From the NCBI GenBank assembly GCA_965204725.1, contig OZ242005.1, forward strand, positions 3,872,001 to 3,936,000: a stretch of DNA of 64,000 nucleotides, given 5' to 3'. Within the stretch, counting starts at the first letter, position 1; every line of letters starts with the position of its first letter. Below are positions 8,531 to 37,898 of this stretch, piece by piece. The DNA comes from Candidatus Latescibacterota bacterium (GTDB lineage: Bacteria; Latescibacterota; UBA2968; UBA8231). Position numbers and translations under genes: made by a program. The notes under the pieces are model-generated. The model searched no databases. It was not told the origin of the DNA and saw only the letters and a program-made list of their open reading frames with translations.

Positions 8531-12364
<3,834 letters not shown>

Positions 12365-15300: not shown

Positions 15301-15505
15301 GCTGCTCCCAATGGCCGCGGGCAATTCCAAGATGGTGGGTTTGGCCTACGCGCCGCTGGGCAGGACGATGATCGGCGGTCTGCTAACGGCGATGGTACTG
15401 ACGCTGCTATTGGTGCCGCTGTTTTACACCTTTTTCGATGATTTCCGCACGGCCATGCAGCGGATTATGACATCGGCATTTGGGCGCAAACAGGAGGCGA
15501 CCTGA
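12374..15505 (+). CDS. RND efflux permease (second subunit)
   Basis: NRPV, GLVVDNAIVIVENI, VNNAIVLID, RFRPILMT; 1043 aa. Confidence 0.95.
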   Translation: MEKPSQYPLPRFSVNRPVTVVMSLVALLVVGYIAYTRIPLTLFPGGFDYPRLFAWAHYPNAGAVEVEEKVVHHLEEAVAQVSRIKRIRSNAYSGGGNVQVEFQKGTDLQLAFAEMKDRLDRVMPELPDEIEQLWVRRWDQNDIPIMEGAITFEAQYADPRQFIDAYVEPALRRVNGVGNIELWGSPSKQVIVELDQSKVHGHRVNVFEVLNSLRAQNLTVPGGWVIEGGKKIYVRSVGRFENVEEIANTVVDPEYQLRLGDIAEVSYKRPQQDWVNRIDRKESLAFGVTKASGANVVEVSNGVKEALEELKDHPKLEGLDFKLFWNQGDQVTNSVDNLKNSGLWGGLFAALVLFFFLRAVRITLIITLAIPLSILATITALYFIGWSLNMATMMGLMLSLGLVVDNAIVIVENIYRKRQEGIAPRPASIEGAGEVGLAVTMATLTTVVVFLPLILMSDEEMFSFWMLRIGLPVIAGLVASLLIALIFIPLAALKLATSKEKSEPRMIAWTRKHYVRSLGWVLNNRLDAFVIALVLLASIQIPMNGMDRTDSQERNEVRMDLAFEMPSGQSLDQAEQFMAVVEDTVMAHRAEYNVEILRTYFRRGWGRVTLFFAEGEDAEWYQVAWDNLSVALGLKEREHLSYKEVEQDLRERLYLPPGVTLRVNWENSEQDPRVNVSLYGEDTEVLIGLAAEVERRLESIPGLLSVNTDMDRGGTELQVRLNRDQVQRLGVDPQMVSGSIAYALRGTNINKFHTDDGREVDIRVQLAEYGSHSLDDLRTQRFPTADGREVPLESLADLYVERTLGNIRRENRQTMLNVSARASKDRAQHLFAQVDQAMQGFEMPRGYRWDKGSRFAELSEQDQSRKFALIMSVTFVFLLMGVLFESFVLPLSVIVSIPFSFLGVYWILYLTDTPFEIMSMIGSVILIGVVVNNAIVLIDLANRLRAEGKSRYDALLEAGRHRFRPILMTTFTTAFGLLPMAAGNSKMVGLAYAPLGRTMIGGLLTAMVLTLLLVPLFYTFFDDFRTAMQRIMTSAFGRKQEAT

Positions 15506-20880: not shown

Positions 20881-21858
20881 ATGAAGCAGATTGTGCGACA
20901 ATTGGATATTCTGCGGGAGTTGCAGGCGCGGCGTTACGGGGTGAGTGTTCGTGAACTGGTAGACGAGTACAACGTAGATAGGCGCACCATCCAGCGCGAT
21001 CTGCAAGACCTGCGCGAGATAGGGTTTCTGCTAAACGCAACACGGCGCACCGATCAGCGCATCTACTACCAGCTACAAAAGGACGCCGAACTGCCGCTGA
21101 ACTTCCCGATCATGGAAGTCGCGGCGATGATCTTTGCCGAGCGGTCGGGCATGGGGCTGGTGGGGACTCCGTTTGGCGAGCACCTGCGGTCGGCGATTCG
21201 CCGGCTGACTCAGGCCATGCCCTTGAAGATGCGGCAATTCCTAGAGCGAGCGGCCGAGGCTTATGTGCCGCTGGTGCGCGGGCACAAGCCTTACGAAGGT
21301 GCCCGCGAGATTCTCGAAAACCTACATGACGCCATCCTGCATCGCCGCGTGTGCTGGGTGCGCTACTCCTCGCCCTGGGCGGAGAGTGCCCGGCAGTACA
21401 ACATTGAACCGCTGCGTCTCCTGCCGCATCGGGGCGGTCTATACGTGATCTCGCGGGTGCCTTACTACGACCAGCTCATCACGCAGGCGGTGGATCGCTT
21501 TGAGGCGGTGGAAGTGACCGACAAGGAGTTTGAGCCGCCGGATCACCTGTCGGTTGACGAGCAAGTAAGCAATGCGTTTGGCGTCTCGTTTGAAGAGCCG
21601 ATGGACGTGGTGGTTCGGTTCACCGAGGAGCAGGCACCGTATATATGGGAGCGGGTCTGGCATCCGAGCCAAGCGATTGAAGAATTGGCGGACGGGCGGG
21701 TGGTGCTGCGGCTGCGGGCTGGGGGATTCTACGAGATCAAGAGTTGGGTGTTGAGCTTTGGCGCGGCGGCTGAGGTGCTAGAGCCGGAGGAATTGCGGGC
21801 GGCGGTGCAGGCGGAGATGCGGGCGGCGTTGGGGTTGTATGACGAGGGGGCGATGTGA
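20881..21858 (+). CDS. HTH-WYL-WCX transcriptional regulator (PafB/DriD/YafY-like)
   Basis: N-terminal wHTH RTIQRDL, WYL core (Y....R..EP..L......Y), C-terminal WHPSQ...DG...EIKSWVLSFG....VLEP.ELR. Confidence 0.93.
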   Translation: MKQIVRQLDILRELQARRYGVSVRELVDEYNVDRRTIQRDLQDLREIGFLLNATRRTDQRIYYQLQKDAELPLNFPIMEVAAMIFAERSGMGLVGTPFGEHLRSAIRRLTQAMPLKMRQFLERAAEAYVPLVRGHKPYEGAREILENLHDAILHRRVCWVRYSSPWAESARQYNIEPLRLLPHRGGLYVISRVPYYDQLITQAVDRFEAVEVTDKEFEPPDHLSVDEQVSNAFGVSFEEPMDVVVRFTEEQAPYIWERVWHPSQAIEELADGRVVLRLRAGGFYEIKSWVLSFGAAAEVLEPEELRAAVQAEMRAALGLYDEGAM

Positions 21859-22075
21859 TCTGACGAGATCCACGGACAAGGAGAGTTGTTCCTTAGAGAG
21901 TTCCTGTCAGACGTGCCATCCCTCGTAGGCGCGACATGCCACCCCACCAGAAGCCTTCGACGAACCGATCTCCTCTTCCCATCCCACCCCATCAACACCC
22001 GCCTCCCAAGACTCGTCTAAGCACCCTCCTGCGCCGATCTTGGAAAAATTGATTTCCTCGTAAAAAGTTTCCACC

Positions 22076-22109
22076 TGCGACGCGATCTGTCGCACCTCCT
22101 AGGTAAGTT
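22076..22109 (+). promoter_or_regulatory. Putative WYL-activator-dependent promoter: TGCGAC-N7-GTCGCA palindrome plus TGTCGC-N10-TA-N3-T
   Basis: Perfect 6-bp inverted repeat at 22076-22081/22089-22094; TGTCGC 22088-22093, 10 nt, then TAAGTT 22104-22109; AGGAGG RBS and ATG 22141 downstream; adjacent to WYL gene. Confidence 0.7.
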
Positions 22110-22140: not shown

Positions 22141-22608
22141 ATGCGTATTCGCTTTTCTTTTTTCGTCGCTCTGTTGGCCTTCGGCCTTGTCGCCTGCGAA
22201 GGCCCGGCGGGACCGATGGGGCCGCAAGGGCCGCAAGGCGCAACCGGACCGCCTAGGGAAGGAATCGTCATCGAGCGGCAACTGTCCAATGCCCTCTACG
22301 ACGAGGACGGCACCATCTTCATCGAGGATGACCGGATAACCCCGACGACCTTCCAAGCCCTTTATCTCAAGTTCAAGGCAGCATTACCCGACCTCGGACC
22401 CGACGTAGTAGCATACATGCCGCTAGACTATCTCCTAGTGTCTGCGGTATCGTTCGCCCCCGAAGAGAGCGAGTTGGAGACGCCGGTCCTCGCCATCAGC
22501 GAGGGTATGCTCACGATCGTGGACCCTAATAGGATCCTCCTAGGTCTCGCAGTAGAATCTTTTTTTGACGGAGTAGATATCCATCTGGCGATTTTAGTGT
22601 CCCAGTAG
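22141..22608 (+). CDS. Lipoprotein with short collagen-like GPx repeat
   Basis: LVAC lipobox followed by EGPAGPMGPQGPQGATGP; strong RBS. Confidence 0.8.
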   Translation: MRIRFSFFVALLAFGLVACEGPAGPMGPQGPQGATGPPREGIVIERQLSNALYDEDGTIFIEDDRITPTTFQALYLKFKAALPDLGPDVVAYMPLDYLLVSAVSFAPEESELETPVLAISEGMLTIVDPNRILLGLAVESFFDGVDIHLAILVSQ

Positions 22609-22635
22609 GCACCATGTCATCTCGGAGAAAAAACC

Positions 22636-23518
22636 ATGCTCAACGCCTACGAACGCCAGCTTATTCTCTTTTACCTCTCCAACGCCGCCGCGCACTTCCA
22701 CCACTCCGTCCGAGGAAAGAGGGAGGAGCTAGCCGAGTGGGTCACCGAGAACCGCGACCTCCTCGCGCTCAGTGACGAGACTGAGGAGCCGGGCGAGCAC
22801 CAAGCGAGCAGCCTCTACGAAAAGGAGTTGTCCGCACGGGAATGGAATCATCTACGGAAGACCCTAGAAGAAGAGTACGCGGCAGCCTGCAAAGGTGGAC
22901 GGAAAGACCGCATAGCCCGACTGCTGCTGCGGCTTGGACAGGAGATGGACCTCGCACCGGAGGACATCGCGCTCATAGAGTTTTGGCTGCACTACGAAAC
23001 GCAGCCGATCTTTGGGTCGCTAGTCGAGTGTTTTGAAAGGGGCCGTCACTATCAGCGATTTTTTAACGTCACGCACCCTGTCCTACCCTGCATTCTCGGC
23101 ATACCGGCTAGCGCATTCCGCGCCCGCTTCACGGCCGATGCACCGCTCGTGAAGTCGGGGCTTGTGTCCGTCAATGACGACAGCGAATTCGAGATCATCA
23201 ATCGACTGCGCCGGCTGGTCTCCGTCCCAGACGACAGCGATCTCGACATGTGTAGCCTGTTGCTCGACGCGGCGACTCCGGGCGAACTGGAGTGGTCGGA
23301 CTTCGACCACGTGGCCGAAGCACGCGACCATATCGAAAAAATGATCAAGGGCGCATTATCCACCGGCAAACCGGGCGTAAACATCTTGGTGTACGGCCCG
23401 CCGGGAACCGGCAAGACCGAGTTTTGTAAGACGCTGGCCGCCCGGCTCGGAGCGAACCTCTATACGGTCGGCGAAGAGGACGAGCGATGCGACCCACGTG
23501 CGCAAGATGGGCTTTTGA
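22636..23518 (+). pseudogene. AAA+ ATPase with large internal deletion
   Basis: N-terminal domain and Walker A GPPGTGKTE, no Walker B; after VGEEDE the sequence switches frame into a terminal ...THVRKMGF* (stop 23516-23518); read-through frame ends at 23613. Confidence 0.75.
23503..23518 (+). repeat. Direct repeat CAAGATGGGCTTTTGA, copy 1 (AAA 3' tail)
   Basis: Exact 16-bp match to 25113-25128; 22/25 identity when extended upstream. Confidence 0.85.
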
Positions 23519-23609
23519 AAACCAAAACAGCGTTCCGGGCTTCCGTCCCTCACAAAACTTCCGCTCAACCCACAGGAGATCGGCAGCGTGTGGAGAACAC
23601 TCTAAAAAC

Positions 23610-24998
23610 ATGACCCAAAAACCTATTGATAATCAGCACCTAGAACGGATGCCACCACAGGCTATCGAGGTGGAGCAGGCCATATTGGGGGCGATGATGC
23701 TCGATCAGCACGCCATCGGCCATGCCCTCAAAATCCTTGCCCCAAGCTGCTTTTACAATGCCTCGCACCGCCGGATCTTCGAGGCCATGATCAGCCTCTA
23801 CGAACGCGACTTGGTCGTCGATCAGTTCACCTTGGCCGAAGAGCTCAAGCACCATGACCAACTTGATGACGTCGGTGGAACCTTCTATCTGGCCGAGCTA
23901 GCTGCCAAGGTCTCTACTTCCGCCAATATCGCTGTCCACGTACGGATCGTCCTAGAAAAGGCACTCAGCCGCCAGTTCATTGAGGTCGCCAGTGACATCA
24001 TTGAGCAAACCTACAAAGGCCACGACAGCGTACTAGAGCTAATCAACCGTGCCGAGCAACGCCTTTTTGCCATCAGCGAAAACTGGATTGGAGGTGGGAT
24101 TAGAGGTGGGATTGAGCCGTTGAAAACGATCATGGGCGACGCACTCAAACAGATTGAGCGTACCCACAGCAAGGCTAGGGCAGTCTCTGGGGTAAGTATG
24201 GGGTTTACCGCTCTCAACGAGAGTACCTCTGGTCTCCAGAAGGGCGAGCTGATCGTGCTGGCATCGCGACCGTTCGTGGGCAAGACAGCACTGGCATTGA
24301 CCTTGGCACGCAACGCAGCCGTGGATACCGGGGTCGGGGTAGTGATCTTCAGCCCGCAAATGTCCAAGATGCAGGTAGTCCAGCGCCTGCTCGGTATTGA
24401 GGCCAAGGTTGATTTGCACCATCTCCGCACTGGGCGACTCAGCGAACAAGCGAGGATGCACTTGACGCGCTATGCCGAGCGCCTAGCCCAAGCACCTATC
24501 TTCATCGACGACACGCCCGCCATCCCGATGCCCGAAGTACGGGCCAAGGCGCGTCGGCTGCACCGGGAACACGGGATCGGCCTGATCGTGGTGGACTATT
24601 TACAATTGATGTGTGGACAGGCCAAGACTTCGAGCCACGAGGAGGAAATCGCGCACATTTCGCGCAGGCTAAAGGAACTGGCCGAGGAGTTGGACCTGCC
24701 TGTGCTAGTGCTGGTGCAGCTAGCGTGCTCGGAGGAAGGCTTTACCAGTCCGAGACCTGAGCTATCGGATTTGCCAGCGTTGGGGATCGAGCAAGCTGCC
24801 GACATGGTGATGTTCATCTACCGCCCGGGCATGTACGGGTTCACGTCGCCATCTGGCGAGGGCTTTGAAAATTTTGTCGAGATCATCATCGGCAAGCAAC
24901 GTAACGGCCCTCTTGAATCGATCTCCCTAAAATGGAACAACGGGAGCGCAACCTACGAGTCGCTTATACCTGAGAGACGGATGGTCCCGGAAGAATAG
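23610..24998 (+). CDS. dnaB: DnaB-like replicative helicase paralogue with degenerate motifs
   Basis: PPQAIEVEQAILG N-domain, ASRPFVGKT Walker A, IVVDYLQL, KQRNGP; but FSPQMS, VQLAC, DLPALGIEQAAD. Confidence 0.88.
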   Translation: MTQKPIDNQHLERMPPQAIEVEQAILGAMMLDQHAIGHALKILAPSCFYNASHRRIFEAMISLYERDLVVDQFTLAEELKHHDQLDDVGGTFYLAELAAKVSTSANIAVHVRIVLEKALSRQFIEVASDIIEQTYKGHDSVLELINRAEQRLFAISENWIGGGIRGGIEPLKTIMGDALKQIERTHSKARAVSGVSMGFTALNESTSGLQKGELIVLASRPFVGKTALALTLARNAAVDTGVGVVIFSPQMSKMQVVQRLLGIEAKVDLHHLRTGRLSEQARMHLTRYAERLAQAPIFIDDTPAIPMPEVRAKARRLHREHGIGLIVVDYLQLMCGQAKTSSHEEEIAHISRRLKELAEELDLPVLVLVQLACSEEGFTSPRPELSDLPALGIEQAADMVMFIYRPGMYGFTSPSGEGFENFVEIIIGKQRNGPLESISLKWNNGSATYESLIPERRMVPEE

Positions 24999-25026
24999 AA
25001 TGCTAGCCAATCCTCTTGGTTTATTA

Positions 25027-25128
25027 GCCGAAATCCTCGGCCACCTATAGGACGCGAAGGCACTCGCCGAATTGCTGCGCGCCGAGTGCGAAGCTAAGCC
25101 AAACCACTCGCACAAGATGGGCTTTTGA
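25027..25128 (+). pseudogene. 3'-terminal stub of an AAA ATPase gene (contains repeat copy 2)
   Basis: Reads AEILGHL*DAKALAELLRAECEAKPNHSHKMGF*; ends with same 16 bp as 23503-23518. Confidence 0.65.
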
Positions 25129-25180
25129 TTAGGTTCTCGTTATTGACAAGTCGATTACCACTGAATAAGGGAGAACCGAC

Positions 25181-25474
25181 ATGCCTATGAAGAACCCACC
25201 ACATCCCGGCCAAGTCGTGCGCGTGTCCTGTCTGGAGCCGCTCGGCCTCAACGTCACGGAAGGCGCGAAAGTTCTCGGCGTCAGTCGCCAAGCCCTCTCG
25301 AATCTGGTGAATTGTCGTGCTCGCATGTCGGCCGACATGGCGATCCGCCTCGCGAAAGCCTTCGGCTCTACAACGGAGACTTGGATACGGTTACAAGCGG
25401 CCTACGACGTCGCTCAGGCGCAAGCGCGTGAGGACGAGATCGAGGTCGAGCGTTACGAGCCGCAACCCGTTTGA
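25181..25474 (+). CDS. higA: HigA-family addiction-module antitoxin
   Basis: MKNPPHPG, A..LGVSRQ.LS..VN......DMA.RL...FG.....W..LQ..YD. Confidence 0.93.
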   Translation: MPMKNPPHPGQVVRVSCLEPLGLNVTEGAKVLGVSRQALSNLVNCRARMSADMAIRLAKAFGSTTETWIRLQAAYDVAQAQAREDEIEVERYEPQPV

Positions 25475-25608
25475 GATAACAGACCGGTTCTTGAAGGAGC
25501 ATACTAGCCTTCTTGCTGTATGTTACTCGCGAAGGGTAGGCTTTCTGTGATACGGAGGAGTGATCAACTTACGTTACGTACCCTCCCGCTAAAGCGGGAA
25601 TCCAAGGA

Positions 25609-26568
25609 GTGATTAATATGCAGAAAGACCGAACCATCTCCCGCGCTCAGGGCTGCTTGTTGGGCCAGCTTGCCGGGGATTCGCTGGGCAGCCTAGTGGA
25701 ATTCCGTAGCCCCGAGGATATTCAGAGCAAGTATCCCGCTGGAGTCCGTGATCTCGCGGACGGCGGGGTCTGGAACACGATTGCCGGGCAGCCGACGGAC
25801 GATTCCGAAATGGCACTCGCCCTAGCCCGAATGCTGGCGAAGCACAATAGATACGACCGAACGCTTGCCTTCACGGCCTATACTCGCTGGTTGGACTCTG
25901 GCCCGTTCGACTGCGGCCACGCCGTCAGAAGCGGTCTTAAGGGAAACGCGATTGGAACCAGCCAAGCGAACGGGGCCATGATGCGGATCAGCCCGCTGGG
26001 CATCTTCGGCGCGAACTACGAATTAGATCAGGTGGCAGAATGGGCGCGCGAGGACGCAGCACTCACGCATCCCCATCCGGTCTGCCAGCAAGCCAACGCG
26101 CTCTACGCCTTGGCCATCGCCTCCGCGGTCCGCGCCGAATGCGAACCGCAGGACCTATACGAGCGGATTCAGATGTGGGCGAGGGACATCCCAACGGAAC
26201 CATCGCTCATGTCGGCCATTGACGGCGCGGCCACAGCACCGCCTGCGGAATATATGCACCAGCAGGGCTGGGTTCTGACGGCGTTCCGCAACGCGCTATG
26301 GCAACTGCTCCACGCCGAGAATCTCGAGGAAGCGGTCGCAGATACCGTCCAGCGAGGCGGAGACACCGACACCAACGCGGCCATCTGCGGAGCGCTGCTA
26401 GGCGCGGTGCATGGCCGAGAATCCGTCCCCGAACGGTGGGTGGACCGAATTTTGAACTGCCGACCCAAGAAAGGGGCTCCCAATGTCCTTCAACCTCGCC
26501 CAGAGTGCTACTGGCCGGTAGATGCGCTAGTGCTTGCTGAGCGTTTGATTCGCCCGCCCGTCGCATGA
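25609..26568 (+). CDS. ADP-ribosylglycohydrolase family protein
   Basis: GCLLG...GDSLG, GQPTDDSEM, NGAMMR..P, TH, GGDTDTNAAI.GAL.GA. Confidence 0.93.
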   Translation: MINMQKDRTISRAQGCLLGQLAGDSLGSLVEFRSPEDIQSKYPAGVRDLADGGVWNTIAGQPTDDSEMALALARMLAKHNRYDRTLAFTAYTRWLDSGPFDCGHAVRSGLKGNAIGTSQANGAMMRISPLGIFGANYELDQVAEWAREDAALTHPHPVCQQANALYALAIASAVRAECEPQDLYERIQMWARDIPTEPSLMSAIDGAATAPPAEYMHQQGWVLTAFRNALWQLLHAENLEEAVADTVQRGGDTDTNAAICGALLGAVHGRESVPERWVDRILNCRPKKGAPNVLQPRPECYWPVDALVLAERLIRPPVA

Positions 26569-26618
26569 CGACCACCCCTAATCTGTGCGGGTTCGCAACA
26601 AAGGAACTCGCACACTAA
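26565..26618 (+). pseudogene. 5' stub of a paralogue of the following nuclease gene (MTTTPNLCGFATKELAH*)
   Basis: CCTAATCTGT.CGG.TTCGCAACAAAGGAACTCGCACA duplicated at the start of the gene at 26636. Confidence 0.75.
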
Positions 26619-26635
26619 ACAAGGAGCACAGCAAA

Positions 26636-27688
26636 ATGACACTGCCTAATCTGTACGGATTCGCAACAAAGGAACTCGCACAGGATGCTACCATTTCATA
26701 TCTCTTGGCGTGGGCCGACCCGGCATACCGCGAATCACATCCGCACCTTCACACCCTTGGCACCGAATTATTGCGTTCACTCCTTCAGACGCAAGAAGTG
26801 GTTCTTCCACCGATCGAAACACTTTGTATTAAGACCCAAGTTGACCGGATTGACATTGTCGTGAAGATCAACGCCGGCGAGAATGGAGTCCTTCTGATCA
26901 TCGAAGACAAGGTGAACACCCAAGAGAGGCGGAACCAAATTAAAGAGTATAAAGAGACCGCCGAGGAGAAGTACCGAGGCCAGTATGATCGTTTAGTTGC
27001 GGTATATTTCAAGACGGGAAACGAATCGAAAGCCAGCCTTCCAAATAAAAAAGAATGCGGCCGCTTTATGCGCCGCGACCTGCTAGACGTCCTGAACAAA
27101 TTTCAGGACACGGGAAATACCATCGTGGACGACTTTCGCACCCATCTTCAAAACCGGGAAGACGATACAAACAGGTGGGAATCCGCGAGTTACGACGAGT
27201 GGAAGGGGGGACAACGGGAGTGCGAGGGCTTCTATGCCGAGCTAGAACACAGGTGGGACGGTTGTTGTGGGTGGGGTTATATTGCAAATCCGGCTGGAGG
27301 ATTCCTTGGCTGGTGGTCGAAATACTGGCCTATCGGAACCAAGGATCGGTACACTCTATATATACAGATCCACAATGCACAGCGTTTGACCGTCCGGCTT
27401 GGATCCGGTAAGGCCATGGACAAAGTTCGTGCCCCGTTCATGTACCAAGTTCTCGATGCCTTGAACGAAGAGGCTTTTGACGACATCCACATCGAAAAGG
27501 CGGGGACGTTCAGGGGCGGCGGTGCTGCAGCGGTTGCAGACGTCACGTTTGATGAACAAGGCCCTTGGTTTGCCGTTGACCCCAACGGCGTCGTGAATAT
27601 GGACGCCACGATCGAACGGCTGCGTCGCTTGGAGGAATTGCTGGAAAAAGTTGCGACGCGCTTAACCGAACAGGGGATCGTCAGTTAG
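26636..27688 (+). CDS. PD-(D/E)XK nuclease superfamily protein
   Basis: ATKEL.QDA, RIDIVV...LIIEDK.......Q...Y; WGY..NP.GGF.G; ATG 26636 with AAGGAG RBS. Confidence 0.8.
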   Translation: MTLPNLYGFATKELAQDATISYLLAWADPAYRESHPHLHTLGTELLRSLLQTQEVVLPPIETLCIKTQVDRIDIVVKINAGENGVLLIIEDKVNTQERRNQIKEYKETAEEKYRGQYDRLVAVYFKTGNESKASLPNKKECGRFMRRDLLDVLNKFQDTGNTIVDDFRTHLQNREDDTNRWESASYDEWKGGQRECEGFYAELEHRWDGCCGWGYIANPAGGFLGWWSKYWPIGTKDRYTLYIQIHNAQRLTVRLGSGKAMDKVRAPFMYQVLDALNEEAFDDIHIEKAGTFRGGGAAAVADVTFDEQGPWFAVDPNGVVNMDATIERLRRLEELLEKVATRLTEQGIVS

Positions 27689-27712: not shown

Positions 27713-28039
27713 TTATGCCCGCAGCAAACGCCGCTGTAGCAAGGTCTGCATGTCGCGTCGTCCATCGGCGATCAAGAGCACATAGACGTCATTTCCCATC
27801 ACCCGATAAATGATGCGATAGGGCCTAAAAAATATCTCTCGGTATTCCCGAACCCCGATGTCCAGCAATTCCGTCGGATAGCTCCCGCGCTCTGGATACT
27901 CGGATAGGCTGCTGAACGCCTTCTCAATCTGCTTCAGCACATAATCCGCCCGGCCCGGCCCATCATGCCGGTCGATGTAATCGCAGATCGTCTCCAAATC
28001 ATACGTAGCGTCGTCGATCAACTGAACCAAGAACGCCAT
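27713..28039 (-). CDS. RelE/ParE-family toxin
   Basis: A..DL..I.DYI, L...PERG, YREI...PYRIIYR, DGRRD. Confidence 0.92.
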   Translation of the reverse strand: MAFLVQLIDDATYDLETICDYIDRHDGPGRADYVLKQIEKAFSSLSEYPERGSYPTELLDIGVREYREIFFRPYRIIYRVMGNDVYVLLIADGRRDMQTLLQRRLLRA

Positions 28040-28314
28040 CAGCGACCCTGGTGCCGCTCCCGCAGCCGTGCGACGACCTTGGCGGCCGGTTGCACCTGAC
28101 CTGCTTCGATCTGGCGGCTACCCAGCGCGAGTATCTTGAGCAACGCAACCGTTTCCTGCATCTGCTCGTAGCTGTCGATGTCCTGCATGACCGCCTTGGC
28201 TTCGCCGTTCTGGGTGATGACCAAGGGTTCTGGTTGGTCGCTAAGTGTGCGTACGATCTCAGCGGCGTGGGCCTTGAGATAACTGATCGGCTTGATCTGG
28301 CTGGACAGTTTCAT
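28039..28314 (-). CDS. Phd/YefM-family antitoxin
   Basis: IKPISYLK, PLVITQNGEAKAV; overlaps toxin start. Confidence 0.92.
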   Translation of the reverse strand: MKLSSQIKPISYLKAHAAEIVRTLSDQPEPLVITQNGEAKAVMQDIDSYEQMQETVALLKILALGSRQIEAGQVQPAAKVVARLRERHQGR

Positions 28315-28376
28315 GAGCACCTCCGTTTTGGACCAAATATAGACCGAAAACAGGTCAAGAGCAATGTCTGGCTAGT

Positions 28377-28457
28377 GCTTGATTATCTCATCTCAGCTTG
28401 AGATGTGCGGGCCTTCTTACTGTAATTTTGAACCGCTACTTCAAATTTACACGCTAA
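28377..28457 (+). repeat. Direct repeat copy 1 (about 70-80 bp) with CATCTCA/TGAGATG hairpin and TTTGAA-N7-TTCAAA palindrome
   Basis: Near-identical to 30080-30150, with its tail matching 30174-30191. Confidence 0.9.
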
Positions 28458-28542
28458 CTTTACATTCGTTTTTCTCTATTTCCTCTTGATCATTAGCCAA
28501 GATCAAACATATTGTCTCTATATGAAATTAAATGGAGTCAAT

Positions 28543-29148
28543 ATGTCTGGATCAAAGAAAAAACGTCCCGAAGAAATCTTCCGCAGGTACGGCGGCCAAC
28601 TTCGAATGAGCGAGGCCATCGCGCACGGGATTACACGCTACATGCTATATGCCCTCAAGGACAGGGGCGTCATCGAGCCAGTCAGCAGAGGCATCTATCG
28701 GCTGCGGGAACTGCCTCCGCTCGGCAACCCTGATTTGGTCGCGGTGAGCCTTCGCTTCCCCAACGCCATCGTTTGCCTCGTCTCTGCGTTAGCCTACCAT
28801 GGCATCACGACTCAGATTCCCCATGAGATTTCCGTGGCAGTGCCAAGAGACTCGCGGGTGCCGGCACTCAACTATCCGCCCATCCGAGCCCACAGATGCT
28901 CGCAGGCAGCATACGAATCCGGCATTGAAACACATCTGATGGATGGCGTACCCGTCAAAATCTACAGCCGCGAGAAAACCCTAGCCGACTGCTTTAAGTT
29001 TCGCAACAAAATTGGTATGGATGTAGTGCTGGAAGCGTTGAAACTCCACCAGACGCGAAACGGGTTCAACCTCGGCGAACTGCTCAAATACGCCAGCATC
29101 TGTCGAGTGGAAAAGGTGATGCGGCCCTATTTGGAGGCACTGGTATGA
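28543..29148 (+). CDS. abiEi: AbiEi type IV TA antitoxin / transcriptional regulator
   Basis: wHTH ..RGIY, CL.SAL..HG.T.QIP, IYS.EKT..DCFK.RNKIG. Confidence 0.88.
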   Translation: MSGSKKKRPEEIFRRYGGQLRMSEAIAHGITRYMLYALKDRGVIEPVSRGIYRLRELPPLGNPDLVAVSLRFPNAIVCLVSALAYHGITTQIPHEISVAVPRDSRVPALNYPPIRAHRCSQAAYESGIETHLMDGVPVKIYSREKTLADCFKFRNKIGMDVVLEALKLHQTRNGFNLGELLKYASICRVEKVMRPYLEALV

Positions 29149-30047
29149 CGTCTCCCCGCAATGTGTCCGCGTCCGTCCGACAACGCCTCCTCAATCGGTC
29201 CAGAAGTGAGCGAAGGCCATTCAACGAGCTGCTTCAATACTTCGCCATGGAGCGATTCCTCTACCGACTATCCCAATCCGCTCATGCCCATCGATTTGTG
29301 CTCAAGGGCGCGTTGATGCTGAGGGTTTGGGGCTCACCGGAATTCCGTCCGACCATGGACATCGACTTACTTGGCAGGACTCGCAACGCGGAAGCCGACA
29401 TCGTCTCTCAGATGCGGGACATCCTGATGGTCAATGTGGAAACAGACGGACTTGCGTTCGACCCAGATTCTATTCAGACCGAGCGGATCACCGAAGGTGC
29501 GGATTACGACGGGATCAGGATTCGGTTCCTAGGCACACTGGGATCCGCGATAATCCACATACAGATTGACATTGGCTTCGGCGATGTCGTGTATCCCGAT
29601 CCAAAAGAATCGGATTTTCCGACCATATTGAACTTCTCGGCACCGCGATTGTTCTGCTACAGCCGCGAGAGCTCCATCTCAGAGAAGTTTGAAGCCATGG
29701 TCAAGCTAGGTATGCTAAACAGCCGGATGAAGGATTTCTACGACATCTGGTTGATGTCTCGGCGGTTCGACTTTGAGGGTCTCAAGCTGACCCAAGCCAT
29801 TCAGCGGACCTTTGAGCGGCGAAACACGGTGCTGCCCGCGAAAATCGAAGCATTCTCTCAGCCTTTCATCGATGCCAAGCAGAGCCAGTGGGCAGCGTTC
29901 CGCAATAGGCTCCGGCAGGATCACCTGCCCACCTCGTTCGGGGAAATCACGGCTTCGGCGTGCGAATTTCTGTGGCCCGTTGTCGCGGCTCTTTCCTCTG
30001 GGAAATCCAGTCCGACAGACTGGATCGCACCCGGGCCATGGACCTGA
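29145..30047 (+). CDS. abiEii: AbiEii nucleotidyltransferase toxin
   Basis: SVRQRL, ERFLYRL, LKG, RPT.DID, DIGFGD, EK, NSRMKDFYD; ATGA overlap with abiEi. Confidence 0.92.
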   Translation: MTSPRNVSASVRQRLLNRSRSERRPFNELLQYFAMERFLYRLSQSAHAHRFVLKGALMLRVWGSPEFRPTMDIDLLGRTRNAEADIVSQMRDILMVNVETDGLAFDPDSIQTERITEGADYDGIRIRFLGTLGSAIIHIQIDIGFGDVVYPDPKESDFPTILNFSAPRLFCYSRESSISEKFEAMVKLGMLNSRMKDFYDIWLMSRRFDFEGLKLTQAIQRTFERRNTVLPAKIEAFSQPFIDAKQSQWAAFRNRLRQDHLPTSFGEITASACEFLWPVVAALSSGKSSPTDWIAPGPWT

Positions 30048-30079: not shown

Positions 30080-30191
30080 GCTTGATTATCTCATCTCAGT
30101 TTGAGATGTGCGGGCCTTCTTGCTGTAATTTTGAACCGCTACTTCAAATTATCATGTAATTTTGAATAGCTATTTCAAATTTACACGTTAA
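30080..30191 (+). repeat. Direct repeat copy 2, with two tandem TTTGAA-N7-TTCAAA palindromes
   Basis: TGTAATTTTGAAccgctacTTCAAATT then TGTAATTTTGAAtagctatTTCAAATTTACA, just before ATG 30202. Confidence 0.9.
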
Positions 30192-30201
30192 TTTTAAGTC
30201 C

Positions 30202-31356
30202 ATGTATAAACGAAATCTGGACCTCCCCGCGTCCGGCACCGAGACGTTTTTCCTCTGGGGGCCGCGACAGGCGGGCAAAAGCACCCTGCTAAAACACCAG
30301 TACGCCGATGGCCTGTGGCTCGATCTCCTAAAGGCCGACGAATTCAGGCGGTACGTCGCCAACCCGGAGTTTTTGCGTCAAGAAATTGAGGCGACCGGGT
30401 TCGATCCCAGCCGCCAGATCGTCATTGACGAGATTCAGAAAGTACCGGCACTGCTTGACGAGGTGCATTGGCTGCTCGAAAACCGAGGGTTGAGCTTCGC
30501 CCTTTGCGGCTCCAGTGCTCGCAAGGTGCGGCGCGGCGGGGCCAACCTGCTCGGCGGGCGAGCCGTGCGCTACCAACTGCACGGGCTGACGGCGCGAGAA
30601 CTCGGCGCAGACTTTGACCTCACCCGCCTCCTCAACCACGGCTACCTGCCCCGGATGTACGCCAACGCTCGTCCCGCCCGGTTGCTCGACGCTTACGTCG
30701 CCGACTATCTCAAGGAGGAAGTCGCGGCCGAAGGACTAGTCCGCAACTTGCCCGCGTTTGCCGGGTTTTTGAACGCGGCCGCTCTAGGCGATACCGAAAT
30801 GGTCAACTTCTCCAATATCGCGCGGGAGTGTGGCGTCTCCAGTCACACGGCGAGAGGCTATTACGAGATTCTCGAAGACGCGCTGCTCGGGCGCTGGTTG
30901 CCCGCCTTCCGCAAGCGTCCCAAGCGGCGAGTGGTTGCCGCGTCTAAGTTTTACTTTGCGGATGTTGGAGTGGTCAACCGACTCGCCCGCCGGGGGCAAC
31001 TGCTGGTGGGATCGGAGCTATACGGCAAGGCATTTGAGAACTGGGTATTCCACGAACTGGCCGCGTTTGCCGACTATCAAGCGTTCGAGGGCGAACTAAC
31101 GTATTGGCGTCTAGCCGGCGGGACCGAGGTTGATTTTATCTTGGGCGACATGCAACTCGCGGTCGAGGCCAAGGCGAGCAACCACATCGTCAGCAACCAC
31201 TTGAAAGGGCTGCGTAGCCTAGCAAAGGATCATCCGGGCGTCGGCCGGCGGGTTGTCGCATGCCTTGAACCCCGCGCCCGGCGCACTGACGACGGGATCG
31301 ACATCCTGCCCGCGACCACCTTCGTCCAAATGCTCTGGTGCGGCGACCTCGCCTAA
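30202..31356 (+). CDS. AAA_14/DUF4143 ATP-binding protein
   Basis: GPRQAGKST, IDEIQK, CGSS, GRA, KFYF.D.G, FE, EVDF...EAK nuclease-like tail. Confidence 0.92.
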   Translation: MYKRNLDLPASGTETFFLWGPRQAGKSTLLKHQYADGLWLDLLKADEFRRYVANPEFLRQEIEATGFDPSRQIVIDEIQKVPALLDEVHWLLENRGLSFALCGSSARKVRRGGANLLGGRAVRYQLHGLTARELGADFDLTRLLNHGYLPRMYANARPARLLDAYVADYLKEEVAAEGLVRNLPAFAGFLNAAALGDTEMVNFSNIARECGVSSHTARGYYEILEDALLGRWLPAFRKRPKRRVVAASKFYFADVGVVNRLARRGQLLVGSELYGKAFENWVFHELAAFADYQAFEGELTYWRLAGGTEVDFILGDMQLAVEAKASNHIVSNHLKGLRSLAKDHPGVGRRVVACLEPRARRTDDGIDILPATTFVQMLWCGDLA

Positions 31357-32033
31357 GCTAGCCGCTTCCACACATCCGCTTGCTGGCTCTCCACTTGCAC
31401 GAGCCGCGCTTCTTCAAGCACATAACCGCTGAGTTGGCCGCCGTAGATGCAGCCCGAGTCAAGGCCGAGGAGATAGGGGCGGCCAGCGCGTTTTTTGAGC
31501 ACCAAGCCGCCGGGCGCGTCGTGGCCAAAGACGAGCAAGGGATGCACCGGCTCGTAGAAATCGTGCCAACGCGGGCGGGCGAGATCGCTGGAGGGCGGCC
31601 AAGTGCGGATCTTCAGGAATTCGGCGCGGCGGGTGCCTTGTAAGCCCTTTTTCGGGTGGATGCCAGCGTGGACCAAGAGAAAGGCGTCTTCTGCGATGTA
31701 GAGCGGGCACTGCCGAAGCCAAGCGAGAATTTCGCGGTGGACGGGCTGGAGCTGGGCGCGGGTATAGCCTTGATCGGAAAACTTCTCTTTGGGCTTGCGG
31801 CCCTTGGCCAGCGCGGTTAGCTGCTTCAAGAGGCGGGCGTCGTGATTGCCCAACACCATCTCGGCCCCGGTGTCGCGGATCAACTGCCACACCGCTAGCG
31901 GGTCGGGGCCGCGGGAAAAAGCATCGCCGGTCAGCAACAGGCGATCCCGGGCCGCGTCGTAGTCTGCTTTTGCGAGGAGGGCTGCAAACTCGGCGGCGCA
32001 GCCGTGGACATCGCCGACGAAAATAGTACGCAT
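31353..32033 (-). CDS. Calcineurin-like metallophosphoesterase (ApaH-like)
   Basis: GDVHG, GD..SRGP, GNHD, VHAG, FGH, LDSGCIYGG.L. Confidence 0.92.
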   Translation of the reverse strand: MRTIFVGDVHGCAAEFAALLAKADYDAARDRLLLTGDAFSRGPDPLAVWQLIRDTGAEMVLGNHDARLLKQLTALAKGRKPKEKFSDQGYTRAQLQPVHREILAWLRQCPLYIAEDAFLLVHAGIHPKKGLQGTRRAEFLKIRTWPPSSDLARPRWHDFYEPVHPLLVFGHDAPGGLVLKKRAGRPYLLGLDSGCIYGGQLSGYVLEEARLVQVESQQADVWKRLA

Positions 32034-32101
32034 TAGATTTTCCTAGATTGCATTGCGGAAGGGCAAACGCTATCATACTCACCACTTCAAGATAGGCCCT
32101 G

Positions 32102-33442
32102 ATGGAAACTGCGACCACACTCACCCCGGCTCCGGCGTCTTGCCACGTGATGGCCAAGCCCTCGGGCTCGGTCTGCAACATCGACTGCAAGTACTGCTTC
32201 TATCTGGAGAAGGAAAAGCTCTACCCGGACGCGAGCAAAAATTGGCGCATGTCCGACGAGACGCTCGAACTCTACGTCAAGCAGTACATCGAGGCCCAAG
32301 ACGTGCCGCAGATAGATTTTGCTTGGCAGGGCGGCGAGCCGACCCTGATGGGCGTAGATTTTTTCCGCCGCGCAGTCCAGCTACAGCAGCAGTACGCCAA
32401 CGGCAAGTTGGTCACCAACGCCTTCCAGACCAACGGCATCCTCCTCAACGACGAGTGGGGCGAGTTCCTCGCCGAAAACAAATTCCTAGTCGGGCTGTCG
32501 ATTGACGGGCCGCGCCAGTACCACGACCGCTACCGGGTTGACAAGGGCCAGAAGCCGACCTACGACCGAGTGCAGGCCGGTTTGCAAACGCTCAAAAAGC
32601 ACGCGGTGGAATTCAATACCCTGACCGTGCTGCAAAACCACAACGCCGATCATCCGCTCGAAATCTATCGCTTCCTGCGCCAAGCGGGCTCGGGGTTTAT
32701 GCAGTTTATTCCCATCGTCGAGCGCGTCGCGCACGAGCCAGACGAAGACGGGTTGGAATTAGTCGATCCCGAATACGAGGGCCGGGCGCCGGTTTCCAAG
32801 TGGTCGGTGGGGCCGGGGCAGTACGGCAAGTTCCTCTGCGCGATCTTTGACGAGTGGGTGCGTAACGACGTCGGCCAAGTCTTTGTCCAGCTCTTTGACG
32901 TGACCCTCGGCTCGTGGCTGGGCCAAGATGCGAGCCTGTGCATCTTTGCCGAGACCTGCGGCAAGGCTCTGATCATTGAGCACAACGGCGACCTGTACTC
33001 TTGCGACCACTTCGTGTACTCGGATTATCGGCTGGGCAACGTCCACGACGAGAGCATCCGCGACATGGTCGCTAGCCCGCAGCAAACCAAGTTCGGGCAG
33101 GACAAAAAGGACGCGCTGCCCCAGTACTGCATCGAATGCGATTTTCGGTTTGCCTGCAATGGCGGCTGCCCCAAGCACCGCTTTACCAAAACCCCACGCG
33201 GCGAAGGGGGTCTCAACTATCTGTGCAAAGGGTACAAGATGTACTTCGGGCACGTTGACCCCTACATGCGCTTTATGGCCAACGAATTGCGGCACGGCCG
33301 GCCGGCCACCGGCGTGATGGAATGGGCGAGAAAAAGGGACGCGGTCAAGTCGGCCCTGCACCAAAAGACCCCTAGGCGCAACGACCCGTGCTCCTGCGGC
33401 AGCGGCAAGAAGTACAAGCGCTGCTGTGGCCGGGCCGCATAA
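32102..33442 (+). CDS. Anaerobic sulfatase maturase (radical SAM/SPASM, C-terminal SEC-C)
   Basis: CNIDCKYC, WQGGEP, QTNG, YSCDHFV, CNGGCPK, RNDPCSCGSGKKYKRCC. Confidence 0.95.
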   Translation: METATTLTPAPASCHVMAKPSGSVCNIDCKYCFYLEKEKLYPDASKNWRMSDETLELYVKQYIEAQDVPQIDFAWQGGEPTLMGVDFFRRAVQLQQQYANGKLVTNAFQTNGILLNDEWGEFLAENKFLVGLSIDGPRQYHDRYRVDKGQKPTYDRVQAGLQTLKKHAVEFNTLTVLQNHNADHPLEIYRFLRQAGSGFMQFIPIVERVAHEPDEDGLELVDPEYEGRAPVSKWSVGPGQYGKFLCAIFDEWVRNDVGQVFVQLFDVTLGSWLGQDASLCIFAETCGKALIIEHNGDLYSCDHFVYSDYRLGNVHDESIRDMVASPQQTKFGQDKKDALPQYCIECDFRFACNGGCPKHRFTKTPRGEGGLNYLCKGYKMYFGHVDPYMRFMANELRHGRPATGVMEWARKRDAVKSALHQKTPRRNDPCSCGSGKKYKRCCGRAA

Positions 33443-35470: not shown

Positions 35471-35511
35471 GCGGGCGATGCGGGCGGCCTGTCGTTGCTT
35501 CTTTCTAAAAA

Positions 35512-35550
35512 TGGCGTAAATTTTGAAGTAATGCTTCAAATTATACGCCA
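35512..35550 (+). promoter_or_regulatory. Palindromic operator-like site TGGCGTAAATTTTGAA-N7-TTCAAATTATACGCCA
   Basis: Long imperfect inverted repeat overlapping ATG 35531; same core as sites at 28421 and 30124/30155. Confidence 0.7.
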
Positions 35551-36790
35551 AATCCAACAAGACATACAAGGTGTTCACCGGCGCGAGCGCGGACGCCTCC
35601 TCGTGCTTACGGGAGCACGTCAAGTGGGGAAATCCACCCTTGCCAGCATGGCGTTTCCCGACTATCCAGTGATCAATCTAGATTCGCCTGTGGAACGAGC
35701 GGCCTACGAGCAGCTAGGGCCGGAAGAATGGGTGGCCCGCTACCCCTGCGCCATCATCGACGAAGCGCAGAAGTTGCCGGCGGTCATCGAGACCGTGAAA
35801 GCGTGTTACGACCGCGATGCGGGGGTGCGGTATATCCTGCTAGGGTCGAGCCAGATTCTGCTACTCGAAAAAGTGCGCGAATCGCTCGCTGGACGTGCGG
35901 CGCTGCGGGCACTTTTCCCGTTTACTCTGCCGGAATTGCTGGCAGCGACCGGCGCGAGCCGACTGGTCGAGATACTCTCTGCCGACGACCCGGTCCGCGC
36001 CCTCGACCAACTATGCCCGGCGACGTACCGCATTACCGCAGCCTACGCGCAGGCCAAAACGCGCTGGGAGTACTTCCTGCACTGGGGTGGGATGCCGCGG
36101 CTTAGGGAATGGGATGACGAGGACCGCTTCGCGTGGTTGCAGGACTACCAAGCGATGTATCTCCAGCGCGACTTGGGCGATTTGGCGCAGTTGCGGCGGC
36201 TGGAGCCTTTTGTCCGCGCCCAGCAAGCGGCGGCTCTACGTTCGGGACAGGTGATCAATTTCTCGGATCTGGCGCGGCTGAGCGACGTGTCTCCGGCGAC
36301 CGCACGGCAGTTTACGCGCTATTTGGAACTGAGCTACCAGATTATTCTGTTGCCGGCTTGGTATCGCAACGCGGAAAAACGCCTGAGCAAGCAAAGCAAG
36401 CTGCACTTTGTCGATCCGGGGATCCGCCGGGGTATTCTGCGAAAGCGCGGGGGGATTGACGGCGCGGAACTGGAAAGTGCGGTGGTCGCCGAAATCTACA
36501 AGCAGTGCCGCAACGCCCAACTGCCGGTTGAACTATACCATCTGCGCACCGCGGACCGACGCGAGGTCGATTTGTTGATTGAGCGCGAGGACGGGTTTAT
36601 CGCCGTGGAAGTCAAACAGACCGCGCGGATCAGCACCACCGATTTTCGCCATCTTCGCGGTCTAGAGGACTTGCTGGATAAGCCGCTGCTGTTGGGCTTG
36701 GTGGCCTCAAACGATGCGTCGAGCATCTCCAGCACGGCCGGGCGGCTGCGCCACGTAGCGATTCCGCATTTGCTATCGGGAGCAGGATAG
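35531..36790 (+). CDS. AAA_14/DUF4143 ATP-binding protein (second)
   Basis: GARQVGKST, IDEAQK, GSS, ESLAGR, GGMP, Y..RD, KLHFVD.G, EVDL...EVK. Confidence 0.92.
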   Translation: MLQIIRQIQQDIQGVHRRERGRLLVLTGARQVGKSTLASMAFPDYPVINLDSPVERAAYEQLGPEEWVARYPCAIIDEAQKLPAVIETVKACYDRDAGVRYILLGSSQILLLEKVRESLAGRAALRALFPFTLPELLAATGASRLVEILSADDPVRALDQLCPATYRITAAYAQAKTRWEYFLHWGGMPRLREWDDEDRFAWLQDYQAMYLQRDLGDLAQLRRLEPFVRAQQAAALRSGQVINFSDLARLSDVSPATARQFTRYLELSYQIILLPAWYRNAEKRLSKQSKLHFVDPGIRRGILRKRGGIDGAELESAVVAEIYKQCRNAQLPVELYHLRTADRREVDLLIEREDGFIAVEVKQTARISTTDFRHLRGLEDLLDKPLLLGLVASNDASSISSTAGRLRHVAIPHLLSGAG

Positions 36791-36811
36791 GCTGCCTCGG
36801 AGTTCGCTGGA

Positions 36812-37642: not shown

Positions 37643-37898
37643 TGTATATAACCTCCGTGATCGTTCCGTTCTTCACCGCCGCCGCCAGTGCCTTATCATC
37701 AAAGGCAAGCATCTCGCTGGCCAACTCTCGGAAAGCCTGTAACTCGTTCTGCGGGATGTTGTCTTGGTCGCTCTTGGCGAAGCCATAAACGAAAAACGCT
37801 CTTTCGGCTCGCCGGAAGAGCACAATGCTCCGATACCCTCCCGACTTTCCCTGTCCTCTCCGTGCCAGACGCTGCTTGCTTGGCTTTGGGGCGATCAA
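37635..37898 (-). pseudogene. 5'-truncated RelE-like toxin (DUF1044 type)
   Basis: KQRLAR.GQGKSGGYR, FFVYGFAK....NI; the usual N-terminal part is missing. Confidence 0.75.

Follow-up and report, generated by a model that had tools for sequence, protein, structure and literature searches.

We analysed a 64,000-nucleotide stretch of DNA from Candidatus Latescibacterota bacterium (GenBank assembly GCA_965204725.1, contig OZ242005.1, positions 3,872,001 to 3,936,000; hereafter the window), and found that P0001, a DnaB-like gene in a genomic island headed by a WYL regulator, belongs to a clade of DnaB paralogues that have lost both the catalytic glutamate and the loop arginine that contacts single-stranded DNA (ssDNA). 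This dead family is maintained under purifying selection. The best joint explanation, to which we assign a probability of about 0.5, is that an island-borne, selected clade of dead DnaB proteins would act as a mimic of DnaB, binding ATP without hydrolysing it and without translocating.

A clade of DnaB paralogues without the catalytic glutamate

Similarity to every relative starts from the ATG at position 23610, which lies within an open frame of 503 codons (23487..24998, +), and this start yields a stop-free protein of 462 amino acids (aa; 23610-24998, +). P0001 has both marks of the DnaB family, the two domains (DnaB N-domain PF00772, 4.2e-30; DnaB_C PF03796, 3.8e-79) and a model score over the curated cut-off (424.2 bits against 385.25 for TIGR00665, the NCBIfam DnaB equivalog). 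It matches phrog_19, 'DnaB-like replicative helicase', in PHROGs (2.9e-85), and a PADLOC scan of the protein returned nothing beyond a weak generic P-loop match (mad8, 2.6e-06). Its motifs lie at aa 218 (ASRPFVGKT), 247 (FSPQMS), 328 (VDYLQL), 369 (VQLAC), 387 (DLPALGIEQAAD) and 428 (GKQRNGP). The protein retains Walker A as well as the Asp of Walker B, the Gln of H3 and the KQR fingers. The catalytic Glu of H1a is replaced by Gln, and the H4 region reads DLPALG-IEQAAD: the ssDNA loop RESGS has become PALG-, with Pro for the loop Arg, Ala for the loop Glu and one to two residues missing, and the H3 Arg is Cys. The protein also contains a tandem duplication that reads IGGG IRGG I (period 12, Tandem Repeats Finder); since three other cluster representatives, P0003-P0005, share this 12-bp insertion, it is old and not a fresh lesion.

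These odd motifs are common to about half of the best 120 of 7,900 matches in a protein search, and all clade counts given here are cluster representatives among these 120. A tree of 119 representatives was built without the H1a, H3 and H4 columns, so that the clade is not defined by the feature being counted. P0001 fell in a clade of exactly 52 representatives (SH-aLRT 99). The catalytic position is occupied by Lys in 47 of them, by Gln in three and by Arg in two, and never by Glu (0/52), which is present in 68/68 canonical representatives. The loss extends to the DNA-contacting motifs: the Arg of RESG and the first Asp of EQDAD are each found in 0/52 members, the loop has lost one or more residues in 52/52, the H3 Ser is Val in 51/52 and the H3 Arg is kept in 7/52, whereas every counted motif residue is intact in 68/68 canonical representatives. 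Every one of the 52 retains GKT in Walker A, the Asp of Walker B, the gamma-phosphate Gln of H3 and K, Q and R of KQRNGP with its trans-acting Lys/Arg fingers; the clade has likewise kept the N-terminal domain and the linker helix. The Arg before the P-loop Pro is lost in 51/52, P0001 being the exception. In all, 14 positions show fixed differences between the dead and the canonical clades, several of them in the catalytic and DNA motifs; the remaining surface, as far as sequence can tell, stays DnaB-like, and conservation of the N-terminal domain (NTD) is 0.84 in the dead clade versus 0.86 in canonical DnaB.

Dead DnaBs pass the DnaB equivalog cut-off, which makes them an annotation issue; one clade member, P0030, bears the name 'replicative DNA helicase' in at least one source. 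Seven of the 52 members (708-729 aa) carry a C-terminal PhzC-PhzF (isomerase-fold) domain. These fused proteins (P0017, P0024, P0032, P0046, P0047, P0049 and P0053; for example L036:9910-12093, G011) form a subclade with DDLQL at Walker B and a retained H3 Arg.

Predicted retained and lost functions of the paralogues

To place the changed residues, P0001 was aligned to solved BstDnaB chains (best PDB match BstDnaB, 1.1e-100, residues 11-442), which put Bst K216, E241, D320, Q362, R365, R381-G384, K418 and R420 on the window protein. The accessible portion of a study of VcDnaB (10.1101/2024.11.09.622779) places E259 in the catalytic centre, reports that E259A is without ATPase, gives N353, T355, N383, R384, R400, E401 and G403 as ssDNA contacts, and identifies the beta-hairpin fingers as Bst R420 and Vc K437/R439. 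Vc and Bst numbering differ by 19 residues, and Vc R384 corresponds to the Arg of SQLSR and Vc R400-G403 to RESG. The same ssDNA contacts in Bst were reportedly described by Itsathitphaisarn et al. in 2012. Read against these positions, the dead family would retain nucleotide binding and the reach into the neighbouring subunit's site. The Glu that activates water is missing, and ssDNA would no longer be gripped. Its proteins can very probably fold, bind ATP and assemble, yet, because the catalytic Glu and the ssDNA-loop residues are replaced, neither hydrolyse ATP nor translocate on ssDNA.

Could the family nonetheless be an active helicase, a spare replicative or island enzyme that uses other catalytic residues? 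P0001 does pass TIGR00665, its ATP-binding elements and fingers are intact, and the ancestor was probably active, one extra copy in a sister genus (G096 copy 2, see below) having all motifs. Such activity is nevertheless very improbable: Glu is absent from 52/52 members, mostly in favour of Lys, the loop Arg is absent from 52/52 and the loop is shortened, 68/68 canonical proteins keep all motifs, and the one substitution in VcDnaB E259A leaves, in the portion of the study cited above, no ATPase.

A preliminary description of the window had presented P0001 as an uninterrupted 462-aa DnaB with its N-domain, a 12-bp tandem duplication and the substituted motifs FSPQMS, VQLAC and DLPALG-IEQAAD, and all of these were recovered, the duplication at 24085-24113 by Tandem Repeats Finder. 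Its claim that the catalytic Glu is lost agrees with the presence of Gln at the position whose Ala mutant (Vc E259A) abolishes ATPase. It was also right in taking the R of KQRNGP for the Arg finger, which is retained, and in that the elements for oligomerisation and nucleotide binding persist (Walker A, KQR fingers). Of the two roles it gave to H3/H4, contact with ssDNA stands (Vc R384, R400-G403), and a nucleotide finger in the DLRESG loop does not.

A relative of the host group's own dnaB

P0001 is not the replicative helicase of its genome. A PF03796 scan of this genome (G000) matched three places: a canonical DnaB of 460 aa (C1:2255217-2256593, -; 361 bits), P0001 (268 bits), and a weak match in a 457-aa protein that we take, from its sequence, to be RadA/Sms. 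The canonical protein carries FSLEMS, SQLSR and DLRESGSLEQDAD, and P0001 is 62% identical to it (287/463). Its gene sits 1.6 Mb from the window gene, presumably flanked by udg-like (uracil-DNA glycosylase) and Obg-like GTPase genes, as read from their translations. P0001 is thus off the conserved locus, with a canonical copy elsewhere in G000 and in every other carrier.

All 31 genus genomes were searched, as were 132 genomes across the class, the latter at E <= 1e-170. Full-length dead copies were found in 9/31 genus genomes (G000, G001, G002, G010 with two, G011, G013, G014, G020 and G042), and the 460-aa canonical gene is present in each of these carriers; no match to DnaB was obtained in two genus genomes, which are 91% and 58% complete. 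Outside the genus, the class search found second copies of the dead-clade lineage only in G096, of a sister genus. The second DnaB copies of G027, G034 and G035, from another family of the class, and the extra copies of G026 keep all motifs, lie outside the dead clade and were set aside. A search of metagenome contigs with P0001 kept 80 loci, all at most 44% identical, which are ordinary DnaBs of other phyla; no close kin appeared among them.

In a tree of the genus and class sequences, the paralogues form one clade (100*), nested within the DnaB radiation of the genus after two early-branching species. The nearest Glu-bearing sequence among the best 120 matches is not a canonical DnaB but P0062, one of three DnaB copies in G096, the others being a canonical one with an insert-sized gap and a broken one. 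P0062 has intact motifs (FSLETS, SQLSR, DLRESGSIEQDAD). The broken copy keeps FSLETS and SQLSR, already reads DLQESG-IEQAAD, and has lost the Walker B region. The two extra copies of G096 and the dead clade make up one group (99*), for which the pieces of the broken copy were joined with X. On this sequence evidence, the island lineage of dnaB branched from the host group's own dnaB, and its ancestor was probably an active helicase, as P0062 has all motifs. The three states, which the tree leaves as an unresolved trichotomy, suggest a series from a captured dnaB copy through a changed DNA loop to loss of the catalytic Glu. Such a natural series from intact motifs to a changed loop to a fully dead protein would bear on how a hexameric motor becomes a scaffold.

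At synonymous sites, some paralogues are closer than the canonical genes of the same genomes (G020-G014, 0.124 vs 0.266; G010-G020, 0.145 vs 0.279), which fits exchange of the island between species; other carrier pairs have paralogues much further apart.

As a separate observation, canonical DnaBs of several relatives (594-aa proteins) carry an intein-sized insert directly after RESG, in the loop that is shortened in the dead clade. The insert-bearing set comprises P0085-P0087, P0095, P0102, P0111-P0116, P0120, L025, L026 and G096:C2:3884370-3885566.

The dead family is under purifying selection

Selection was assessed by codon-model likelihood with our own code (GY94, F3x4, fixed topology). 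Eight paralogues gave a maximum-likelihood (ML) one-ratio omega, the ratio of non-synonymous to synonymous rates, of 0.286. The corresponding value was 0.132 for the canonical dnaB in eight genomes, which are the paralogue genome set with G000 replacing the second G010 copy. Within the paralogues, omega was 0.28 in the NTD, 0.42 in the linker and 0.24 in the C-terminal domain. Pairwise Nei-Gojobori dN/dS ranged from 0.21 to 0.41 among paralogues, compared with 0.09-0.24 for the canonical dnaB of the same genome pairs.

These data bear on several points raised in the preliminary description. It had offered simple decay of a duplicate as its alternative; at the level of the family this is rejected, the substitutions being present in 52/52 members and omega being 0.29. 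The tree and dN/dS analysis that it proposed delivered a clade of 52 without the Glu and a family omega of 0.286, which is not near 1. It had also asked whether a canonical dnaB exists elsewhere or whether P0001 is the only one in the genome: the 460-aa gene at G000:C1:2255217-2256593 answers the first in the affirmative and the second in the negative.

A WYL-headed island of shuffled cassettes

Eight loci of 12-20 kb were fetched around the dead dnaB copies, and open reading frames (ORFs) were picked by length and by GC content at third codon positions (GC3). In 8/8 loci the gene is part of the stretch that adjoins a metallophosphoesterase and radical-SAM/SPASM gene pair. The WYL/WCX gene falls within 6/8 loci; in G010 it is found just beyond the fetched locus, and in G023 at another place. 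Across the genus, the radical-SAM gene occurs in 29/31 genomes and the WYL gene in 16/31, including 9/9 with a full DnaB-like copy, and the distance between the two is 4.5-13.7 kb in the 11 genomes that have both on one contig. The cargo is shuffled between genomes and comprises PDDEXK_4 nucleases, a double-AAA ATPase with a collagen-like lipoprotein, ADP-ribosylglycohydrolase, HigA, ParDE, AbiE and AAA_14/DUF4143. The regulator thus stands next to defence-type genes: AbiE and the candidates PDC-S01 and PDC-S26 in the window, an IetA-like AAA gene in kin, and restriction-modification (R-M) and TIR genes in G096. The preliminary description of an island headed by a WYL regulator and devoid of replication or phage genes was borne out, in that family scans of the 64-kb window found no integrase, replication initiator, replication or phage gene.

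Nearly every cassette starts with an element of about 60-75 nt, whose core CTGCGACGCGATCTGTCGCACCT is almost invariant in 23 aligned copies from nine genomes (the window and L034-L041) and always lies just 5' of a cassette. The element is likely, from its sequence and placement, a shared promoter and operator. It is present in the G096 island (L148, L149) too, including 170 nt upstream of P0062. The window has one exact copy (22076-22094), before the lipoprotein gene, and G000 has two more, at C1:4948448 and C1:152568, adjoining small ORFs without a family.

The gene most often found directly before the dead dnaB encodes an outer-membrane-protein (OMP) beta-barrel of 198-238 aa with a signal peptide (6/9 copies with context). 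Its stop overlaps the DnaB-like start in G010, and the gap is about 10 bases or less in the other five. By eye, the OMP genes (L034-L040, e.g. L036:9262-9900) are far more alike across genomes than the helicase copies are. The 691-697-aa ATPase with a winged-helix domain (WHD) and two AAA domains has IetA as its best PADLOC matches; within the stretches fetched, it is not found in G002 and G020. The lipoprotein gene that usually precedes it, as its homologues do in G010, G001, G011 and G023, gave no match in Pfam, PADLOC or PHROGs. In G013, G002 and G014 the HigA gene follows a 92-aa ORF that we presume to be HigB-like. The island of G096 (L148/L149, G096:C2:1748000-1787800) is likewise WYL-headed, about 28 kb long, and holds both extra dnaB copies together with a DNA methylase and ResIII (type III R-M), a CAP12/Pycsar TIR protein, AAA_15/21, two PDDEXK_4 nucleases, a double AAA and Gp49.

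A DnaB mimic as candidate effector

How could a DnaB that neither hydrolyses ATP nor translocates be useful to an island of this kind? We tentatively propose, at somewhat less than even odds and from sequence features, that the mimic is itself the effector. The inverted repeat conserved in the cassette promoter may, by analogy, be the operator of the island's WYL repressor. Once the promoter is released, the dead DnaB would be made, and would join canonical DnaB rings or occupy DnaB-binding proteins such as the loader, the primase or the helicase-hijackers of phages and plasmids, so that replication of the invader, or of the cell, would be braked or misdirected. Transcription of the window copy would have to start from 22035-22109, the one promoter that bears an operator, and to pass two deletion remnants before it reaches the gene. 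The DnaB-like surface and the absence of a constant effector partner speak in favour of the mimic acting by itself; such a protein needs tight repression, which the operator-bearing promoters could supply. A full-length DnaB that keeps the elements for binding ATP and its neighbour, and has lost both requirements of the motor, is a candidate for replication-targeted immunity or regulation.

A bolder and unlikely version of this proposal is that these proteins are natural dominant-negative replicative helicases: a captured cassette would have been stripped first of its grip on DNA and then of its catalytic base, leaving an inducible replisome mimic that traps DnaB or its hijackers. If true, a replication-fork pseudo-enzyme would here be what confers immunity.

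The same island setting could instead accommodate a guard or decoy, in which the dead DnaB would lure phage proteins directed at DnaB, and their binding would activate a separate effector of the island. The defence-type surroundings, the preserved partner-facing parts (NTD conservation 0.84 vs 0.86) and the PhzF-like C-terminal domain of 7/52 members, which could be an output module, are compatible with such a sensor. We consider it doubtful, since no effector is constantly linked to the gene: the neighbours vary among genomes, the AAA gene is not found in the stretches fetched from G002 and G020, and the frequent neighbour is an exported OMP.

Alternatively, the protein may serve the host outside defence, for instance by slowing forks or by chaperoning the assembly of DnaB, with the WYL regulator inducing it when DNA is damaged. 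It derives from the host's own dnaB, and WYL regulators such as DriD drive DNA-damage responses too, according to the part of the BrxR-family study available (PMC9122601). Against such a role, the gene is accessory (9/31 genus genomes, with remnants in two), the G020-G014 synonymous distance (0.124 vs 0.266 for canonical dnaB) points to exchange of the island, and the gene travels with toxin-antitoxin and restriction genes; we judge this reading about as doubtful as that of a decoy.

Several observations weigh against the proposal of an island-borne, selected mimic. No fixed effector or partner travels with the dead dnaB, and the proposal does not account for the exported OMP barrel that shares a cassette with a cytoplasmic pseudo-helicase. 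Control by WYL is deduced, by analogy, from adjacency, co-occurrence and the common inverted repeat. Excerpts from the literature indicate that inactive subunits are tolerated in some hexameric motors. Omega for the family is roughly double the value for canonical dnaB, and losses of the dead copy are common, as seen in the remnants of G023 (truncated, residues 5-278) and G021 (N-terminal fragments with a stop) and in the broken copy of G096. Other points concern the window copy itself. Its ORF is the sole intact gene between AAA remnants, its neighbouring cassette genes are deletion remnants, and the operator that normally lies before the OMP gene is gone, which leaves P0001 without an operator of its own. 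Its end branch is the longest (0.26, compared with 0.095-0.17 in the sister group P0003-P0005), and it departs from the family at 36 positions conserved in at least 90% of members (next member, 19), 21 of which are conserved in canonical DnaB too. It has a unique Phe in the P-loop, and 47/97 of its unique substitutions are G>A or C>T, a GC-to-AT bias.

The window copy may be an incipient pseudogene

Much of this would also be seen if the window copy were an incipient pseudogene, whose cassette has collapsed and whose ORF is open merely from too little time, the family perhaps working elsewhere. We regard this as a real possibility, though on the unlikely side. It would account for the AAA gene with its out-of-frame deletion, the OMP gene reduced to its ends, the second AAA of 106 nt, the missing operator, the 36 departures and the P-loop Phe, and decay is seen elsewhere in the lineage (G021, G023 and G096 copy 1). 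In the branch model, omega on the window copy was 0.46 against a background of 0.29 (likelihood-ratio test, p = 0.024), and a parsimony count of its unique changes, 72 non-synonymous to 25 synonymous, corresponds to an omega of 0.88. The latter value was set aside for the ML branch model because synonymous changes are undercounted on long branches.

Other data argue against an absence of selection over the whole branch. All 462 codons are open, and omega = 1 on the branch of the window copy is rejected (p = 0.00013). When the 97 counted substitutions were scattered randomly, only 4.4% of 5,000 simulations remained stop-free. No indel that separates the ORF from its kin shifts the reading frame, and the 12-bp insertion predates the split from P0003-P0005. 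The same arrangement is present in contigs from run X3 and run X5, which cover 22600-25500, and in one from X6, which covers 23466-25013; all three runs are labelled as sponge metagenome. These contigs, which show presence only, differ from the window by 63, 73 and 21 letters (about 1-2.5%); no indel within the ORF is listed for them, and the letter differences listed (40 of 126) all lie at or before 23205. Pieces from run X4 are identical to the window. No RNA run was among the sequencing runs listed as containing this DNA. The window copy is therefore the most derived member of the family and is still constrained on average, with constraint relaxed compared with its kin. In our reading, selection on it has weakened but has not been long absent; by simple arithmetic, an omega of 0.46 would fit about three quarters of constrained and one quarter of neutral time, and the copy has possibly been released from selection recently.

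One contig joint of run X6, 23495 -> 25026, omits 23496-25025, the DnaB-like segment between two AAA 3' ends. Either a variant without the gene or a break in the assembly, caused by the repetition of the AAA 3' end, would produce such a joint, and it was not used as evidence.

Comparison with known systems

In architecture and length P0001 equals canonical DnaB (TIGR00665; BstDnaB 2r6a/4esv, VcDnaB 6t66/9dls, EcDnaB 6bbm). It differs in carrying other residues in place of the catalytic Glu, the H3 Ser and Arg and the Arg of the ssDNA loop, in having a shorter loop, and in that its gene is off the udg-dnaB-obg locus, accessory, and evolves at about twice the non-synonymous rate. With the mobile-element DnaBs it shares its status as an extra dnaB copy on accessory DNA. 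Both classes considered were rejected, P0001 scoring 328.9 against a cut-off of 498.65 for phage DnaB (TIGR03600) and 317.3 against 655 for the SPI-7-type island DnaB (NF040583); unlike these, it is catalytically substituted, and trees nest it within the DnaB of the host group.

The nearest laboratory counterparts are Glu mutants of SF4 helicases (VcDnaB E259A, T7 gp4 E343Q), in which the same position is hit; the change in P0001 is exactly Glu to Gln. Those mutants are engineered single changes, whereas the change in the dead clade is natural, clade-wide and joined to the loss of the DNA loop. In gp4 hexamers, one E343Q subunit reportedly blocks DNA-dependent hydrolysis (Crampton et al. 2006). 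A mutation of the gp4 E343Q type was introduced into Twinkle homologues purified for complex formation, as described in the available part of PMC9723800.

Selected dead paralogues of core replisome enzymes are, to our knowledge, rare, and known ones, for example ImuB, proved to be adaptors with a biology of their own. Like ImuB, which the accessible part of one study describes as catalytically dead yet essential (PMC6511836), the dead DnaB would be a copy of a replisome enzyme selected for contacts and not for chemistry. ImuB belongs to a different protein family, and its defined partners are encoded with it in one operon; fixed partners of this kind are lacking for the dead DnaB.

For the island, the closest known arrangement is that of the BrxR islands, and by this analogy WYL binding here is putative. 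In the part of the study available, BrxR-family WYL proteins are repressors acting on inverted repeats just downstream of defence-island promoters (PMC9122601). As in BrxR/CapW islands, we find a helix-turn-helix (HTH)-WYL-WCX protein at the head, variable defence-type genes, and an inverted repeat after an A/T-rich promoter-like stretch. Unlike them, the island has no BREX or CBASS genes, its repeat is 6-N7-6 instead of 11-N5-11, and the repeat leads many separate cassettes instead of one or two promoters. The main text of the BrxR-family paper (PMC9122601) contains the word 'DnaB' 0 times, and a literature search, with most subscription journals outside its reach, found no paper on a catalytically dead or defence-island DnaB paralogue.

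Organisation of the window and further observations

The features of the island in the window are given in Table 1. In the AAA pseudogene, the first approximately 285 codons are fused out of frame to the last 25 nt of the gene (23494-23518); the open frame continues to 23613, and the homology of relatives ends near 23483-23490.

Table 1. Coordinates of the DnaB-like gene and of the surrounding island features in the window.
Feature	Position	Strand	Basis
HTH_11-WYL-WCX regulator, island head	20881..21858	+	WCX 5.1e-23, WYL 8.7e-12, HTH_11 2.4e-11; PADLOC WYL models
Cassette 5' element: A-rich stretch and inverted repeat TGCGAC-N7-GTCGCA, core 22076-22094	22035..22109	+	Alignment of copies
Predicted lipoprotein, 155 aa, Gly-Pro-X collagen-like; usual upstream partner of the double-AAA gene	22141..22608	+	Translation
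Pseudogene of 691-697-aa WHD and double-AAA ATPase	22636..23518	+	Pfam (Walker A region only); full-length relatives
OMP beta-barrel gene remnant: few 5' codons and last 9 codons (IGSVWRTL*)	23562..23606	+	Comparison with full genes
DnaB-like gene P0001, 462 aa: N-domain, linker, RecA-type domain	23610..24998	+	ORF, Pfam, motif alignment
12-bp tandem duplication, 2.4 copies; +4 residues in flexible linker before linker helix	24085..24113	+	Tandem Repeats Finder
Second double-AAA 3'-end remnant, 106 nt, downstream of the DnaB-like gene	25026..25131	+	Matches to AAA 3' ends in L034, L035, L036, L041
HigA-type HTH_3 protein without its preceding 92-aa ORF	25181..25474	+	Pfam
ADP-ribosylglycohydrolase	25609-26568	+	Pfam
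PDDEXK_4 nuclease	26585-27688	+	Pfam; PADLOC candidate PDC-S26
ParE/Phd	27713-28320	-	Pfam
AbiEi/AbiEii	28486-30047	+	Pfam, PADLOC
AAA_14/DUF4143	30202-31356	+	Pfam; PADLOC candidate PDC-S01
Conserved right flank: metallophosphoesterase (-) then radical-SAM/SPASM (+)	31353..33442	.	Pfam

A second repeat family (71 nt, 97% identity, with the internal near-palindrome TGTAATTTTGAAC) occurs at 28377-28462, upstream of the AbiEi gene, and as two overlapping copies at 30080-30196, upstream of AAA_14/DUF4143; this family, too, may be a control element that leads cassettes. Beyond the right flank, AAA_14/DUF4143 occurs a second time (35495-36790), and a RelE-type toxin ORF (37635-37898, -) adjoins a 276-aa ORF without a family; the genes of this segment (35495-37898) appear from their sequences to be further defence or toxin-antitoxin-type genes outside the hot spot. 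Finally, an AcrB-family transporter ORF of 1,277 aa (8531-12364) exceeds its 1,043-aa neighbour (12374-15505) by about 240 residues, and its Pfam match falls in three stretches, which may reflect an inserted domain or an over-long start.

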